A stretch of DNA of 19,497 nucleotides from a virus: UHGV virus genome UHGV-0127427. One strand, given 5' to 3'. Under the pieces are notes generated by a model that saw only the letters and a list, made by a program, of their open reading frames with translations, was not told where the DNA came from and did no database searches. Numbering within the stretch: position 1 is the stretch's first letter; every line of letters starts with the position of its first letter. Positions 1-11,691 of the stretch are shown in pieces. The position numbers and the translations under genes are program-made.

Positions 1-1
1 T

Positions 2-1693
2 ACGATTTTTTCCGAATTCTGCGGTTCCCCCGACATCCATCATCTGACGTTGCCATGGACACCAGCCAGTGTCGCACAGCGTAACGGTCGCGGTGCCCGA
101 GTTGGCTCCAACCGTGCAAGCGTTCGCGTTCATTACTACTGCGGCAAGGGTTCTTTCGATGAATACCGACTGAAGACGCTGAAGCGTAAAGCAGGCTGGA
201 TCTCCGATATCCTCCGTTCAGATAAGTCAGAAATGGAGAACGCCGACGCCAACGATATGATCGAAATGCAGATGTATACCGCTAAGGATGATGGCGAACG
301 TCTGGCAATGATGCAGGTTCAAATGGATAAGGCGAAAGCCGCGCAACGCGCCCGCCAGAAAGAACAGGCCGCTATCGACCTTCAGAACTACATCAAGGCG
401 CAACATGCAGCTGGCGAGGATGTTGCGGCTCTTACCGCTGAATTAGAGCGAAGTAAAGCGGAACTTGAAAAGACCACCGCCGAGGTAGCTAAATTCAAAC
501 AGGCGGTAATGGCCAAAGCAGCTGATAATGCAGACTGGAAGGCCCGCTGGGGTAGCGTCCATCACACAGACCGTACGTTGTTAGCACATTATCGCGCGTC
601 GTTGAAAAGCGCCATTCAGCGCAAGGCTAATATCACTCAAGCCATCTCCCGCTATGAGAAATTATTGAACCGTACTCAGAAGGCCGCGACGGATATCAAA
701 CGCCTGCGCCCGCTGGTGGAGGATGCAATAAATAAAGGCATTCTGGATGTTGATCCTGATCTGGTTAACCATGCGAATGAGTTCCTTGTTATCGGCGATC
801 GCTCATGGCGTGTAGGCCAATACTACGATTGTGCCGGTGATATCGTTCGCATTAAGTCGCTGGACTTCGACAGCCAGCGCGCAGACGTGGAGATCATCTT
901 TACCTTCAAAGGCACCAAATCGGGTAACTGGGATGTGAAGACGCTGGATAAACAGGTGGATGTAACTCCCGATGAAGATGCTGTTATGCAGAAAATCAGT
1001 GGTGGCGTCTCCATCGCCGGGATTAACGACATCATTTCCTGTGACGATTTCTACCGTTTCCAGCAGCGCGGCATGATCAAAATCACTGACTCATACGGCG
1101 TTCAGACTACAGAGTCAGGCTATAGCATTGATTTTGTTGGTACCTATACGGACCCACTGAAGCATGCGGTTTACCCGGATCGCCGTGACGGCGCGCTGAA
1201 GTCGTCAATTGCAAAATGGGTGCTTGGTATGATGTCGGAAGGGAATAACCGCCAGGTCCGTTTGGCAGAAGTATTCCTGACTGAACTGTTTGGCTCCAAT
1301 TATGGCGAAGTAATCGCGTCATACGGAGATACGCTATCCCCTGAAGCAATTCAGGAGAAAATAGCGGATGCGATCGCCAGAATGCCGGAGAAAACAAGCC
1401 AGGGGGCTACTCGTAACGGGGATTCTGAACTTGAGGTCACCAATGCCATTTTCGGTACCCATGAGTTCCGGGCGTCAGATTATGAGATCACCACAGCACA
1501 GTTTGGCACCATTGGCATTTACAGCAATAAAGACGAGATCAAGCAGGCAATGGACGCTGCAAGCGCGCGTATTGCAGCAGAACGGAAAGCCAATCTGAAT
1601 CATGCAGTCGCCGCGCTGACTCAATCGTGGGTAACAGCAATCAGGGAGGCCGCCACCACAGGGAAATCACACCGGCAATTGCGGATGTCGTAA
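2..1693 (+). CDS. darB: DarB-like protein, C-terminal ~560 aa (5' end lies outside the window)
   Basis: Reading frame is open from base 2 to the stop at 1691-1693 (the track's start at 50 is a TTG inside the open frame). A helicase motif VI-like QRNGRGAR lies near the visible N-terminus. Followed in the same orientation by ulx- and lxc-like genes as in P1. Assignment is by synteny and motif, not homology search. Confidence 0.5.
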   Translation, partial: TIFSEFCGSPDIHHLTLPWTPASVAQRNGRGARVGSNRASVRVHYYCGKGSFDEYRLKTLKRKAGWISDILRSDKSEMENADANDMIEMQMYTAKDDGERLAMMQVQMDKAKAAQRARQKEQAAIDLQNYIKAQHAAGEDVAALTAELERSKAELEKTTAEVAKFKQAVMAKAADNADWKARWGSVHHTDRTLLAHYRASLKSAIQRKANITQAISRYEKLLNRTQKAATDIKRLRPLVEDAINKGILDVDPDLVNHANEFLVIGDRSWRVGQYYDCAGDIVRIKSLDFDSQRADVEIIFTFKGTKSGNWDVKTLDKQVDVTPDEDAVMQKISGGVSIAGINDIISCDDFYRFQQRGMIKITDSYGVQTTESGYSIDFVGTYTDPLKHAVYPDRRDGALKSSIAKWVLGMMSEGNNRQVRLAEVFLTELFGSNYGEVIASYGDTLSPEAIQEKIADAIARMPEKTSQGATRNGDSELEVTNAIFGTHEFRASDYEITTAQFGTIGIYSNKDEIKQAMDAASARIAAERKANLNHAVAALTQSWVTAIREAATTGKSHRQLRMS

Positions 1694-2796: not shown

Positions 2797-3041
2797 AAAA
2801 GCGATACTACACAGTAAAGCATGGGACGCTACGAGCATTACAAGAGTTTGCTGACAAGCATAACGTTGAGGTGCGCAGGGAAGGGGGAAGTAAAGCTCTG
2901 CGCATGTACCGTCCGGACGGGAAATGGCGGACGGTCGTCGATTTCAAAACAAACAGCGTTCCCCAGGGCGTCCGCGACCGGGCATTCGAAGAATGGGAGC
3001 AGATCATCATAGATAATGCTCTGCTACTAAATGCTGACTGA
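2793..3041 (+). CDS. lxc: Lxc/Bof-like C1 co-repressor, 82 aa, TTG start
   Basis: 82-aa ORF (the size I recall for P1 Bof/Lxc) beginning with TTG 6 nt downstream of GGAGA, overlapping the upstream stop (TTGA); no in-frame ATG until codon 38. Confidence 0.6.
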   Translation: MKKRYYTVKHGTLRALQEFADKHNVEVRREGGSKALRMYRPDGKWRTVVDFKTNSVPQGVRDRAFEEWEQIIIDNALLLNAD

Positions 3042-3300
3042 GTTTAATATTACAATATTATCTGGGAGATAAATGCATCTTATTTCCCAGATGATAACTG
3101 ATGTTTTACATATTCACATGGTGTACAATTATAATACTGCCTAAATAGGCACACAAAGTACGATATGCTACTAAAACCACAACTTTTTGATACTTGTTTG
3201 AGGGGGCGGGTTTGCTTTAGTAATTTAATAGCAAAAGCCATTCGTGTATCAAGTAATAACTTACTGAAGGAGGTGTTTTCTAATAAGAGTTTTTTCTTTA

Positions 3301-3801
3301 TTAAACTCTCACTATGTATAGATAATCAGTTAAGTCTCTTAGTTTCCAATGTTTAGATACATCTGAAAGAAATATGCTGCGTACTTTCCCTGAGAAAGTA
3401 GGCATACCAGACTTAAGAAAAGCTCTAAGGTTGTCAACATCACTAAAAATTGAAAGTAATGAAAAAGTTAAAGCATCCTTAAAATCAGGATGTATATGAT
3501 TCTGGTCACTTATATTATCGATCATCCTGATTAATAAATCAGGATAAGCAAAAGACTTTTTTAGCAAATGTGGGCATTTATCCAGAAGTTGCTTCCCTTG
3601 GTGATTGTGACAAGATAAATAGTTTCTTACAGCACTATCATTAAGTTCGAATTCGATATATTTATCTGAATAGGTTTGTAAGAATTCGCGTTCAGAATGT
3701 TTAAGCAACAGCACATCACCATAATTTAATATTAAGAAATCCTTAAGAAATTGAAAATTTATCGGTTTCTTTATAAGGATGAAGTAACAGACTCCTGACA
3801 T
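3301..3801 (-). CDS. hypothetical protein, orphan gene in the AT-rich island (start ATG 3801 preferred; ORF extends to ATG 3813)
   Basis: 166-170 aa ORF in strongly AT-rich DNA; GGTGG lies 5 nt upstream of ATG 3801; no motif recognised. Confidence 0.4.
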   Translation of the reverse strand: MSGVCYFILIKKPINFQFLKDFLILNYGDVLLLKHSEREFLQTYSDKYIEFELNDSAVRNYLSCHNHQGKQLLDKCPHLLKKSFAYPDLLIRMIDNISDQNHIHPDFKDALTFSLLSIFSDVDNLRAFLKSGMPTFSGKVRSIFLSDVSKHWKLRDLTDYLYIVRV

Positions 3802-4035
3802 AGCTACCACCATTCTAAAGAGGCTTTGAACAAGAATAGAGATACAGCAGCACTGAAATCAAGAAGTTGTGCAAAAAATAAAAATATTGATTTGTGTCAT
3901 AGTTGCTGCTTTTTATTATTTAATTTTTATCAATTTCACTACAGATAAATAAATTGACATAGTGTGTAACCCCTGTAAATATAAAGGGCACTTTATCTGC
4001 TAAAGCCAACCAATTTAAAAATAGAGGGTGGGAGC

Positions 4036-4726
4036 ATGGAAGTTATCTACATAGTAGAACCAATCATTTCCACAAGCACTAACAAGTTGATAGCAGTGGA
4101 AGTGTTGAGCAGATTTTATTCCAACGAGGGGGGCTATTCTTTCTACTCAGAAAGTATTAGGTATGTTTACAAGCAAGATGAAGATTAACTTGCTAAAATC
4201 TCAACTTAACACAATAATCAAATATAAGTATTTTTTTGAATGCCATAATATATTATGCTCTATCAATGTAGATTATGATACCTGTTTATATATATATGGC
4301 AATAAACAAATTCAAGAACTACTAATAAACAATAAATTTATAGCGATTGAGATATCAGAAAACTATCCTGATTTAAGCGATGAGGATTACATCATATCCT
4401 TTCTACTGACTTTGACAGATAATGTTTGGCTTGATGATTTTGGAAGTGGTAACGCCACCATGAAAGCATTAATTAAAAATAAATATCATGCAATAAAACT
4501 TGATAAGTCATTTTTTCAAGAGCATATGATTAAGCCTCATTTTGATGTCATTATTAGCAATTTAAAAAAGTTATGTCCGAATATCATCGCTGAAGGCGTC
4601 GAAAACATTGATTGTCATAAGTTATCAAAAGGGATAGGGCTATGGGGCACTCAGGGATATTTTTTCCCATCAATTCCGCTGACGGAGATTGAGTCCATAG
4701 ATAGTAAGTGGCTATCAGATTTATGA
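4036..4726 (+). pseudogene. EAL-domain gene (degenerate EAL-only type) split by a frameshift: frame 1 4036-4188 (50 aa, EVL motif), frame 2 4163-4726 (187 aa)
   Basis: Frame 1 starts at ATG 4036 behind GAGGGTGGGAGC and encodes the EAL-type N-terminus (EPIISTSTNKLIAVEVLSRF). Frame 2 carries the remaining EAL signatures in canonical order: DDFGSGNATMKAL (DDFGTG), IKLDKSFF (KIDRSF), IAEGVE, QGYFFPSIP (QGYLFSRP). The two frames overlap around a G6 run at 4128-4133. Confidence 0.55.
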
Positions 4727-5420: not shown

Positions 5421-5981
5421 TTAGTGCATGATGTTTGCCATCTCATAGGCGTCAGCCAGTAACTCCATCTCTGACTTGTTCAGCAGGGTGAATTCTTTCT
5501 TGCCTCCAACCACACCATCGGCATGAACAGGGACCAGCCAGGGGTATTTTGCTCTTACTTCAGCCGGAGCTGCATGCTGGTGGTGCCATCTACAAAGAGG
5601 CAATTGCTTTTTATGACAACCCGGCGCGGTACGACCGGCGATATGGTGCAGAGACATCTCATTAGATATTACTCCATGCATATAGCAGGCAATGCAGGGG
5701 AGAGTGCCAAGAGCATTGGCGATGCGCCGTTCCTCCGCCGTTGGTGTTCTCCCCTTCAAGCCACGAGATTTTATTTTTACCGCGCTTTTCCGCGTTTTGC
5801 TGGCTGGTGGGCGCTCTTTCTGTTTAGCGATACGGCGGTCGAGAGTATCCCGCATTTTCTGATATTGAGATTCTCGCCAGACCGGATCAGCCAACTTCTC
5901 CCGTTGCCGAGCGATCGCTCGTTCTCTGGCTGCCTTCTGCCACTTGCGGCACTGTTCAATTTTTTGTTCGATTGTTTTCAT
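5421..5981 (-). CDS. ref: Ref, recombination enhancement function (HNH-family endonuclease), 186 aa
   Basis: 186-aa ORF starting MKTIEQKIEQCRKWQK with Cys/His-rich HNH core (CIACYMHG...HH...CHKKQLPLCRWHH); matches P1 Ref as I recall it; located between mat and cra/cre as in P1. Confidence 0.9.
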   Translation of the reverse strand: MKTIEQKIEQCRKWQKAARERAIARQREKLADPVWRESQYQKMRDTLDRRIAKQKERPPASKTRKSAVKIKSRGLKGRTPTAEERRIANALGTLPCIACYMHGVISNEMSLHHIAGRTAPGCHKKQLPLCRWHHQHAAPAEVRAKYPWLVPVHADGVVGGKKEFTLLNKSEMELLADAYEMANIMH

Positions 5982-5985
5982 ATGG

Positions 5986-6014
5986 CAAAAAAAAAAGGCG
6001 GCCTAATGGCCGCC
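5986..6014 (-). terminator. intrinsic terminator / attenuator-like hairpin (7-bp GC stem, 4-nt loop) plus U10, 5 nt upstream of the ref ATG
   Basis: Minus-strand sense GGCGGCC-AUUA-GGCCGCC followed by ten U, then GCCAU-AUG(ref). Confidence 0.5.
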
Positions 6015-6081
6015 AATGATGTCAAGGAGTGAAGTAATGGCAACGTCTTCGTAGTTGACAAAAACTGCGGCTCAATTATAG

Positions 6082-6098
6082 CGATATATTAGAGCAAT
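6082..6098 (-). promoter_or_regulatory. C1 operator-like site (Op2-type) overlapping a candidate ref promoter
   Basis: Minus-strand sense ATTGCTCTAATATAT (14/17 to ATTGCTCTAATAAATTT) directly followed by CGC and a perfect TATAAT, about 90 bp upstream of ref. Confidence 0.65.
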
Positions 6099-6204
6099 GA
6101 TAGATATTTTGTTTATCGCTAATCACATTTTTTCACTTCAGTACCTGTGTGCTATACTCCTTCTTGATTGATTGGATGCGGAATACAAACCCGCTCTTTT
6201 GTGC

Positions 6205-8777: not shown

Positions 8778-9629
8778 ATGATAAATTATGTCTACGGCGA
8801 ACAACTGTACCAGGAGTTCGTCAGCTTCAGGGATCTCTTTCTAAAAAAAGCTGTTGCACGCGCCCAACACGTTGATGCCGCCAGCGACGGTCGTCCTGTT
8901 CGCCCGGTTGTCGTTCTGCCGTTCAAAGAAACGGACAGCATTCAGGCTGAAATTGATAAATGGACTTTAATGGCGCGGGAACTGGAACAGTACCCAGACC
9001 TCAATATCCCAAAGACTATTTTATATCCAGTGCCTAACATCCTTCGCGGTGTACGTAAGGTTACAACTTATCAGACAGAAGCTGTGAACAGCGTCAACAT
9101 GACCGCTGGCCGCATTATTCATCTGATTGATAAGGATATTCGCATCCAAAAAAGCGCGGGGTTCAATGAGCACAGTGCGAAATACATAGAGAACCTGGAA
9201 GCAACAAAAGAGCTAATGAAGCAGTACCCGGAGGATGAAAAATTCCGTATGCGCGTACACGGCTTTAGCGAAACAATGCTGCGCGTCCACTACATTTCCA
9301 GTAGCCCTAACTACAATGATGGTAAATCAGTTAGTTACCATGTGCCACTGTGTGGCGTGTTTATCTGCGATGAAACCCTCCGTGATGGAATCATCATCAA
9401 CGGTGAATTCGAGAAAGCAAAATTTAGCCTTTATGACTCCATAGAACCGATCATCTGCGACCGCTGGCCGCAGGCAAAAATATATCGCCTGGCAGATATT
9501 GAAAATGTAAAAAAACAAATTGCCATCACTCGCGAAGAGAAAAAGGTCAAATCAGCCGCATCAGTTACGCGCAGTCGTAAAACTAAGAAGGGGCAGCCAG
9601 TAAACGACAACCCCGAAAGCGCGCAATAA
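8778..9629 (+). CDS. c1: C1 repressor of lysis, 283 aa
   Basis: 283-aa ORF starting MINYVYGEQLYQEFVSFRDLF behind GGAGGAGG; matches P1 C1 in length and N-terminus as recalled; multiple cognate operators in the window. Confidence 0.95.
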   Translation: MINYVYGEQLYQEFVSFRDLFLKKAVARAQHVDAASDGRPVRPVVVLPFKETDSIQAEIDKWTLMARELEQYPDLNIPKTILYPVPNILRGVRKVTTYQTEAVNSVNMTAGRIIHLIDKDIRIQKSAGFNEHSAKYIENLEATKELMKQYPEDEKFRMRVHGFSETMLRVHYISSSPNYNDGKSVSYHVPLCGVFICDETLRDGIIINGEFEKAKFSLYDSIEPIICDRWPQAKIYRLADIENVKKQIAITREEKKVKSAASVTRSRKTKKGQPVNDNPESAQ

Positions 9630-9632
9630 ATT

Positions 9633-9654
9633 ATGCCCGGCATCAACCGGGCAT
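9633..9654. terminator. hairpin between convergent c1 and the antirepressor-like gene (possible bidirectional terminator)
   Basis: ATGCCCGG-CATCAA-CCGGGCAT, 8-bp stem, 4 nt after the c1 stop; flanks are only moderately T-rich. Confidence 0.45.
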
Positions 9655-9661
9655 TCTTCCA

Positions 9662-10429
9662 TTATTCAGCCGCCACCGGTTTTAACAAGCCAGCATCGAG
9701 CAGTTTACGCGTCAACCACTGTTGTCCTTTCCCCGTTAATTGGGGCGTCAGCCGTATCTGGTAGCCATCTTCATCATCCAGCACCACTTCTTTCACTGTG
9801 AAATATCCGGCGTTTATGTACTGCTGGAACGGCACATTTTTACGCCCGCCGGACGCTATCAGAATGCCGTTCTCCCGTAACCAGGCAAACAGCGCGTTTT
9901 GCTTCAGCCCAACAACCTTTGCAAAATTACCAATCAGGATCCCCTTAGCCACTGATACACGGTCGGCAAAATCGACCTTGGGGGCTGCGGCCACCAGTTG
10001 TTGATTTAGCTGGTGGGCCTTCTGTTCCAGTAGCTGCTTTTGTTCAGCCAGCTCGGCAGCCAGGCGCAAGGCTTCAGGTAGTGTTTGGGGGATTGCGACC
10101 GGTTGCTGTTCTTTTTGCCGGAAGTAGCTGTCTTCCAGTTTTTCAAAGAATGCCCATGCTTCATCTGTGTTTACGATCTTAGACATGCGTGCCGCTCCGC
10201 GTTCGGCCCAAAGAATTACCTGGCTTGTATATTTGCTAACCAGGTGACTAGTAGTCACCAGCCTTTTAAATTCCTTTAATTTTGAACCAGTTAAGAGATA
10301 GTAATGCTTACCTTCTTCAAAGCGATCGGAGTTGCGAGACAAATTTTTACGAATATTAGCTTCATCGGTTCCATAAGCGCAGATAAACATCGCGCTTATC
10401 GACATCCAGATGCGGGTATTCCTTTTCAA
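9662..10429 (-). CDS. phage antirepressor-like protein (ORF6N-type N-terminal region plus KilA-C/ANT-type C-terminal region); start uncertain (TTG 10429 or ATG 10405)
   Basis: N-terminal half AYGTDEANIRKNLSRNSDRFEEGKHYYLLTGSKLKEF...ILWAERGAARMSK and C-terminal half DRVSVAKGILIGNFAKVVGLKQNALFAWLRENGILIASGGRKNVPFQQYINAGYF are typical of phage antirepressors; sits where P1 has pacB/pacA/lpa. Confidence 0.65.
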   Translation of the reverse strand: MKRNTRIWMSISAMFICAYGTDEANIRKNLSRNSDRFEEGKHYYLLTGSKLKEFKRLVTTSHLVSKYTSQVILWAERGAARMSKIVNTDEAWAFFEKLEDSYFRQKEQQPVAIPQTLPEALRLAAELAEQKQLLEQKAHQLNQQLVAAAPKVDFADRVSVAKGILIGNFAKVVGLKQNALFAWLRENGILIASGGRKNVPFQQYINAGYFTVKEVVLDDEDGYQIRLTPQLTGKGQQWLTRKLLDAGLLKPVAAE

Positions 10430-10556
10430 GAATTGCTGCGAGTTCTTTCGCTGATAGAAGAGATTTAGTGCGGATCATGTAATCCGCAATCTCGTACGAT
10501 GTTATTCGTGAGTGATTTATTTCCATGAAGTGGCGTCCCTGCCAGTTAAGTAACAT
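10362..10556 (-). CDS. hypothetical 64-aa protein overlapping the 5' end of the antirepressor-like gene in another frame
   Basis: ATG 10556 preceded by AGGTGA at 4-nt spacing; ends within the first codons of the antirepressor ORF; could be a real leader gene or the product of a frameshift. Confidence 0.35.
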   Translation of the reverse strand: MLLNWQGRHFMEINHSRITSYEIADYMIRTKSLLSAKELAAILEKEYPHLDVDKRDVYLRLWNR

Positions 10557-10626
10557 CCTGTCACCTACTGATTAGCCCATGTCAACTAATCAACGTCGAA
10601 TATAATACCCTCGATTAAAGAAATAG

Positions 10627-10643
10627 CAATACATTAGAGCAAT
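10627..10643 (-). promoter_or_regulatory. C1 operator-like site upstream of the 64-aa/antirepressor unit
   Basis: Minus-strand sense ATTGCTCTAATGTATTG (14/17) beginning 1 nt after the pdcB-like stop; TTGCTA-16 bp-TATTAT promoter-like hexamers overlap it. Confidence 0.55.
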
Positions 10644-10644
10644 T

Positions 10645-11691
10645 TTATCTAACGCTCGACGAATGACTTGTGATAGCGCCGACTCCAAGCGCGTAATCAA
10701 AGAACAATCGTTGATGCATCGCCAGCCTACCGTGCGTCTTCTCCCAATTATCGCGGTCACGCTCAATATCACGCTGGCATGACTGGCACAGAGGAATAGC
10801 ATAAATGTCATGCGCGCATAATCGACTATAACGAACGATATAAGGCGTAATGTGAGCGCCAGCTCCCGCCGCTCCACACCCACAGCATGGACGGGAAGCA
10901 ACAAAGTCCATGTACTCAGGTAATTTTAGCGATTGCAGTTTTGGTATTTTGAAATGCGCCATACCTGGGTCGGAGTCAACATCCACAGGGCATACTTTTG
11001 CACGCATCGGCGCGGCGCGTTCTTCCATCATCTGAACATATGCTGTAGCGCGATCGTCATACGGGCGAATATCCGCCTCTTTCAGTGGTCCGCTATCCTG
11101 CGGAGTAGCCTTCATCTTATTTATTATTGATATGCGGCAGACTTCTTCCGGCATCAGGTGCATCATGTTGCGCATGAAAGCCCACCAGCACAGCTCCTGA
11201 ATACTTAAATCATGGCTATTTGAAAGGCCCATTTCCTGACGGGCGACATCCAGTATCCAGTTAACGCGATTATTGTGCAGCGTTTCTTTCAGCTCATTAA
11301 AACCACGCATCCGGTAATGGTTATCGTGATGCCAGCACAACAACACCGCGCTATTGTCTCGTTCAGCGTGGACAATATGGTTGTCACACCAACTACGATC
11401 TGCGGCCTGGCATTGACCCTCTTTCCTACGCAACCACGCCACCAGCGCGTCAATTCCACCAATACGGCGAAACAGTTCATCGCTGTTAAAAAACGGCTGC
11501 AACGCCTCATTTGTTGCCATGGTTTGCTCGGTAACAACGAGGCCGTCTTCCATGTGCTCGATTAACTCACGCGGCACCGGCTCCATAATAAATTTACGGC
11601 CAGCCTCCACCAGCTTTCTGACCTCCTGATCCACTTTGAACGTGGCGAGGCCAAGCTCTTTCTGTACAAAGGGAGTAATTACGGCTTTCAC
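10645..11691 (-). CDS. pdcB: PdcB-like protein (post-doc gene B position), 348 aa, GTG start, Cys-rich C-terminal region
   Basis: GTG 11691 preceded by AAGGTG at 4 nt; C-terminal CCGCG...C..C..C..C cluster suggests metal binding; assignment by position downstream of doc. Confidence 0.5.

Follow-up and report, generated by a model that had tools for sequence, protein, structure and literature searches.

The window analysed here is a stretch of 19,497 nucleotides (UHGV virus genome UHGV-0127427), and it comes from an E. coli plasmid prophage that is P1-like and defective. The locus of interest reads mostly on the minus strand. It begins with pdcB (10645..11691), a DUF968 gene (Pfam PF06147, E 1e-48) that is annotated as HNH-type in P1, where it likewise lies upstream of lpa. 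Next come the C1-repressor operator Olpa (10627..10643, minus strand; ATTGCTCTAATGTATTG), which in alignment is identical to the annotated Olpa/Op94 of P1, and the sigma-70 promoter Plpa (10602..10629, minus strand), with a -35 element TTGCTA at 10629..10624 and a -10 element TATTAT at 10607..10602. Plpa is identical to the annotated P1 promoter and was also detected by a promoter scan. Two overlapping open reading frames follow, the first of 64 aa and the second resembling a phage antirepressor. The latter converges with the c1 repressor gene (8778..9629, plus strand, 283 aa), which is annotated as C1 in all relatives. The 32-nt gap separating the ant and c1 stop codons contains a GC-rich, 9-bp hairpin (9633..9654, minus strand) that passed the terminator scan in the minus-strand orientation only and probably acts as a terminator.

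The first-pass annotation had described the 64-aa ORF as strongly equipped with a ribosome binding site and as ending within the antirepressor ORF, and our coordinates agree. The frame (10362..10556, minus strand) runs from ATG 10556 to a TGA at 10364-10362, and its start has a duplex energy with the anti-Shine-Dalgarno sequence of -7.7 kcal/mol at good spacing. Its product matches the Pfam family PF25716 (BPP1_LPA) at E 1.1e-20 and 74.8 bits, against a cut-off of 35 bits. This match covers only positions 1-47 of the 131 in the profile, compared with positions 1-130 for the Lpa of phage RCS47, and the product falls short of the full length of 150 aa. At the nucleotide level, window 10658..10374 is identical, except for 2 bases upstream of the start, to the P1 sequence of lpa (gene 10, encoding the late promoter-activating protein) and its control region, a stretch that takes in the operator, Plpa, the ribosome binding site, the start codon, and lpa codons 1-61. 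The Lpa homology ends after ...CTGCGCTTA, and the remaining residues, W-N-R followed by the stop codon, are encoded by antirepressor DNA read out of frame. Thus 61 of the 150 codons of P1 lpa are kept and the C-terminal 89 residues are lost, and LPpac, pacA (with pac), and pacB of P1 are gone from the window. By homology, then, the 64-aa ORF is the N-terminus of Lpa and not of an antirepressor; we refer to it as lpa'.

The antirepressor ORF spans 10429..9662 (minus strand). Upstream, the frame is bounded by a stop at 10477, and it closes with a stop codon whose last base is 9662; the in-frame start candidates are TTG 10429, ATG 10405, and ATG 10390, which would overlap the 64-aa ORF by 68, 44, and 29 nt, respectively. 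The earlier observation that this ORF has only TTG or internal ATG starts and no clear Shine-Dalgarno sequence was borne out: the anti-Shine-Dalgarno energies are -0.9 kcal/mol for TTG 10429, -5.6 kcal/mol for ATG 10405 (at a distance of 13 nt), and -3.9 kcal/mol for ATG 10390. The native starts lie at about -11 kcal/mol (-11.4 for the Ant2-type start in relatives and -10.8 for the native ant1 start). The stop codon of the 64-aa ORF is 26-41 nt past the two in-frame ATGs and 20 nt before a further candidate, TTG 10342. The part of the mechanically called ORF that reaches up to TTG 10429 is lpa' sequence in another frame, and gene callers working on identical contigs picked ATG 10405, giving 247 aa.

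The antirepressor sequence proper, the 'ant remnant, occupies 9662..10373 (minus strand) and corresponds to approximately residues 135-371 of Ant in RCS47 numbering. It encodes a truncated ORF6N domain (PF10543; 10175..10378, minus strand), covering profile positions 20-86 of 86 compared with positions 4-86 in the RCS47 Ant and in a fusion protein of plasmid TUM9803 described below, and a complete KilAC (ANT) domain (PF03374; 9698..10003, minus strand; E 1.8e-31, positions 2-106 of 108). A protein alignment that included the starts annotated in P1 places both the Ant1 start and the Ant2-type start within the missing DNA. A search of the PDB for a relative of Ant by which to judge the ORF6N truncation found none. 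With its native start gone and its ORF6N domain truncated, the ant remnant is best regarded as a pseudogene, which we infer to be at best weakly translated and non-functional. Reinitiation at ATG 10405, ATG 10390, or TTG 10342 could conceivably occur at a low level, and a KilAC-only fragment might keep some activity.

Comparison with close relatives accounts for the overlap of the two frames. Window 10800..10374 matches positions 2901..3327 of the locus from the E. coli TUM9803 plasmid at 100% identity, and window 10375..9501 matches positions 3577..4451 of the same locus, again at 100%. Both matching blocks include the dinucleotide TA, so that a 2-nt microhomology lies at 10375-10374 and 10373 is the first unambiguous ant base (junction 10373..10375, minus strand). 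In the closest complete records, the TUM9803 plasmid (100%) and three MRE162 plasmids (99.7%), the two halves are 251 bp further apart. There they belong to one gene: the TUM9803 plasmid pMTY9803_untypable1 encodes a 381-aa protein annotated as 'phage antirepressor Ant' (WP_001653129.1), in which Lpa(1-66) is joined in frame to Ant from approximately residue 56 and which starts at the same ATG as the 64-aa ORF of the window. This Lpa1-66::Ant fusion is also found in the MRE162 plasmids and in IMG/VR UViG_2778261693_000004. Relative to it, 251 bp that encode fusion residues 62-145 are absent from the window, and the ORF is split out of frame. As 251 cannot be divided evenly by 3, the lpa' frame runs into a stop codon after WNR, and what is left of ant is shifted to the +1 frame. 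The missing 251 bp hold the motif AAGGAGG-N7-ATG, which in the alignment falls on the Ant2 start annotated in P1, and encode the first ~19 profile positions of ORF6N. Compared with an intact RCS47-like layout, the total loss is ~4.0 kb and comprises the 3' part of lpa, LPpac, pacA with pac, pacB, the operator, C4, icd, and the 5' third of ant.

By these alignments the ORF overlap is a deletion junction at 10374|10373 rather than a chance overlap, and the overlapping segment 10362-10429 is Lpa-coding DNA that chances to be open in the ant frame. We consider it very probable that the two ORFs are pieces of one gene broken by the 251-bp deletion, that is, an ordinary pseudogene scar. The first-pass annotation had raised the possibility that a frameshift separated an original N-terminus from the antirepressor body. 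This holds in outline, given the single 381-aa ORF in the TUM9803 plasmid between flanks that are 100% identical. The details differ, as the lesion is a 251-bp deletion and not a small indel, and the N-terminus is that of Lpa (residues 1-61) and not of the antirepressor. MAFFT aligned the N-termini of Lpa and Ant1 in register, but BLASTP finds no match between them, so the TUM9803 fusion did not arise by exchange between paralogous domains. A second in-frame chimera of 93 aa was also observed (proteins P0039 and P0041, on E. coli and E. fergusonii contigs), in which a Tyr common to both proteins links Lpa(1-47) to the C-terminal 46 residues of Ant; lpa-ant fusions therefore arose more than once.

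The junction itself is rare among the collections that we scanned. No contiguous match to the junction 30-mer was found in 5,426 complete E. coli genomes, PLSDB, the GTDB representatives, IMG/VR, or a metagenome DNA index, and this absence from the complete-genome, plasmid, GTDB, and IMG/VR collections indicates that the allele is not common. It is also the one point in favor of an assembly or sequencing artefact, with the 251 bp present in the true molecule. An exact-protein look-up, however, showed the 64-aa product to be encoded by at least 28 contigs, in 45 index blocks, that originate from various human-gut metagenomes, a JGI sample, and a Logan run, always with the same 247-aa call after it. 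Since this look-up found the junction, the DNA collections searched evidently do not hold those contigs. The junction was identical in all six of the carrier loci retrieved, five of which showed no difference whatsoever from the window over 1.1 kb. Identical junctions across studies, assemblers, and samples, at a site where any repeat that might cause an assembly to collapse is at most 2 nt long, make an artefact very improbable; the same junction on at least 28 independently assembled contigs indicates that the deletion is real and a recently spread allele.

Two further readings would give the overlap a function. The 64-aa ORF could be a translated leader from which ribosomes reinitiate on a shortened but active antirepressor, and several features are compatible with such an arrangement: its ribosome binding site is strong, its stop lies close to ATG 10405, ATG 10390, and TTG 10342, and the P1 record describes icd and ant as a coupled pair ('icd apparently required for expression of ant'). 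A short ORF precedes ant in P1 immI as well and runs into its 5' end. There, however, the end of icd and the start of ant1 have 4 nt in common, and ant1 is served by a strong Shine-Dalgarno sequence of its own (-11.4 kcal/mol). In the window, a fragment of lpa takes the upstream position, the two frames share 29-68 nt, and the Shine-Dalgarno sequence is lacking. Overlaps in translational coupling are typically 1-4 nt. The arrangement also appears to be a recent accident, with 0 substitutions among its carriers and no diverged homologue that shares the architecture; the ORF6N domain is truncated; and in one carrier (L009) the remnant has been broken again at window position 10177. The coupled leader gene proposed in the first-pass annotation likewise found no counterpart among homologues, none of which has a separate conserved small gene followed by an ant start at 10405 or 10429. 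Intact Ant proteins are 370-372 aa long, start far upstream, and are preceded by icd. We therefore regard a functional leader as improbable. A programmed +1 ribosomal frameshift reuniting the Lpa' and Ant frames is the least credible of the explanations considered and hardly deserves weight: the ant frame does lie at +1 relative to lpa' and the frames do overlap, but 10362-10429 contains no +1 slippery motif (such sites are exemplified by the CUU-UGA type, and the stop context here is CGA-UGA-A), and the junction is a recent deletion without conservation. The pseudogene scar remains our preferred reading of the locus.

The ancestral layout can be judged from the RCS47-type P1-like plasmids, in which a second immI-like cassette lies between pacB and c1 (Venturini et al., 2019; PMC6906374). 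This cassette, consisting of an operator, C4 RNA, icd, and ant, is a ~75%-identical paralogue of P1 c4-icd-ant1/ant2. The window shares with it the 3' two-thirds of ant, the place convergent with c1, the 32-nt spacer, and the intact KilAC domain, and lacks the operator, the C4 RNA, icd, the Ant1 start, the Ant2-type start, and Ant residues 1-134. A search with Rfam identified the C4 antisense RNA between pacB and ant in RCS47 (75 bits), and the same search of the window returned no match. In RCS47 (L019) the interval 5894-6117 contains, besides the full C4 RNA, an isrK-like RNA (60 bits). The a1/b1 target model also matches there, but weakly (22 bits) and short of its gathering score of 47, and the RNA elements are preceded by a C1-operator-like sequence, TTGCTCTAATAAATT. 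From its sequence, the pacB-ant stretch of RCS47 looks like a largely complete second immI-type operon, of which nothing is left in the window.

The ant gene next to c1 has been damaged in other ways among these plasmids. In an MRE162 plasmid (L022) codon 175 of the fusion is a nonsense codon (S175*), in pSF10EC-2 (L003, 3547-4557) the c1-adjacent ant has an internal stop, and in p1_025943 (L004, 3459-4667) ISVsa5 is inserted between icd and ant. In L009, the carrier of the 251-bp deletion mentioned above, homology breaks at window 10177 and a terminal repeat follows, which we take to be of the Tn1721 type. A link between L009 and the TUM9803 plasmid through a methyl-accepting-chemotaxis module was considered and rejected, as the L009 homology breaks at a different position. 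Such repeated, independent loss of the c1-adjacent ant, by deletion, nonsense codon, IS, and transposon, is consistent with decay of P1-derived plasmids or with selection that disfavors their induction.

The most economical history of the window allele has two steps. The nearest complete relative across the whole window is an MRE162 plasmid (99.9% identity), which carries the lpa66::ant junction, and plasmids with intact lpa-pacAB reach at most 98.4% identity; this difference is what argues for a fusion followed by the 251-bp deletion. The MRE162 match begins at 917, with window 1-916 unaligned to this otherwise 99.9%-identical plasmid. From an ancestral order as in RCS47 (pdcB, Olpa/Plpa, lpa, pacA, pacB, a cassette of operator, C4 RNA, and icd, then ant and the convergent c1), an earlier deletion of ~3.8 kb would have joined lpa codon 66 in frame to approximately codon 56 of ant. 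Its product would be the C1-repressible, 381-aa Lpa'::'Ant gene that is still found in the TUM9803 plasmid. A further 251 bp would then have been lost through illegitimate recombination at a TA dinucleotide, with the deletion starting at lpa nucleotide 184, reaching the Tyr codon within the GYGTD motif of Ant, and taking with it the Ant2-type internal start, its strong Shine-Dalgarno sequence, and the first ~19 ORF6N positions. In the absence of C1, Plpa would transcribe lpa'-'ant, and we infer that the 64-aa peptide would be made. A single deletion of ~4.0 kb from an intact RCS47-like plasmid, running from lpa nt 184 to ant codon 134 with no fusion intermediate, would leave the same sequence. 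In favor of one step, lpa nt 183 is also the recurrent left endpoint of at least 7 other deletions that clearly began from intact lpa-pacAB, all of them spanning the pac site. The presence of lpa66::ant both in MRE162 and in the TUM9803 plasmid, with its 100%-identical flanks, and its absence from the more distant intact plasmids nevertheless make a single deletion the less likely course, and we retain the two-step history.

The left endpoint of the deletion coincides with a structural feature of lpa. A 10-bp hairpin inside the gene (10374..10398, minus strand; TAAGCGCGAT-GTTT-ATCtGCGCTTA) has its 3' foot at 10374, the left deletion endpoint, and folds as DNA with a centroid energy of -8.8 kcal/mol and a z-score of -2.9. 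Junctions were collected from two sources, the 90% protein cluster that includes the 64-aa ORF and a homology search, which returned many other truncated Lpa N-termini. At least 8 distinct junction types in P1-like plasmids begin directly after lpa nt 183. Endpoints equivalent to nt 183 were seen in loci L002, L011, L014, L016, L106, and L108. The right ends of the nt-183 deletions fall in mid pacA, at the pacA end, at three positions in pacB, at icd codon 6, and, for the window, in ant; TA precedes the partner sequence in all seven of the nt-183 junctions with recoverable right-hand context. More junctions lie at nt 161, the 5' foot of the hairpin, where they occur on more than 800 contigs, and at nt 173-174 in the loop, and the pac site annotated in P1 is spanned by all of the deletions with hairpin endpoints. 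In an unbiased sample of metagenome contigs, 47 of 58 lpa copies were intact and one of nine truncations lay at nt 183; in IMG/VR, 77 of 80 lpa copies were intact. Counted by distinct junction types, the recurrence at nt 183 is therefore real, but its share is inflated by the protein-cluster ascertainment, as a cluster-based list over-samples this region.

On this basis we tentatively propose, with somewhat more doubt than confidence, that lpa nt 183 is a deletion hot spot at which TA microhomology mediates the loss of the 3' part of lpa, pac, pacA, and pacB. A break to the right of lpa could be followed by trimming of the 3' tail back to the hairpin and by joining through its frayed terminal TA, and the initiating double-strand break might be pac cleavage itself. 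Replication slippage at the hairpin would be an alternative route. Several other causes of the nt-183 endpoint were considered and set aside. Quasi-cix sites for Cin show no half-site symmetry, and invertases disfavor deletions; Cre/lox does not fit; a ColE1-type nic, which has the form CTGG|CTTA, is at odds with junctions that fall after CTTA and not before it; and adjacent deletion mediated by an IS finds no IS at the junctions. Loci L106 and L107, with left ends at lpa nt 183, and L152, with its left end at nt 233, have right ends within 1-2 nt of each other in pacA, at a common site GCATA|C|GAACG equivalent to P1 ~91323, which may be a preferred right-hand site. More speculatively, the C1-controlled peptide of 61 N-terminal Lpa residues that is retained could be beneficial in its own right, for example if it disturbed the late transcription of P1-like phages that superinfect.

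Annotators should record the 64-aa and 247-255-aa ORFs as fragments of lpa and ant pseudogenes; automatic callers mislabel them as 'hypothetical protein' and 'antirepressor YoqD-like'. The components of the locus and the icd-ant cassette were already known, and the recurrent hairpin-foot endpoint in lpa is a modest lead, the sole element here that is perhaps worth a separate study. With the late activator, the packaging enzyme and its site, and the second antirepressor module lost, the element would be able to live only as a plasmid. If the hot spot at lpa nt 183 is real, it would represent a recurrent route by which an inducible phage-plasmid is turned into a non-lytic plasmid.
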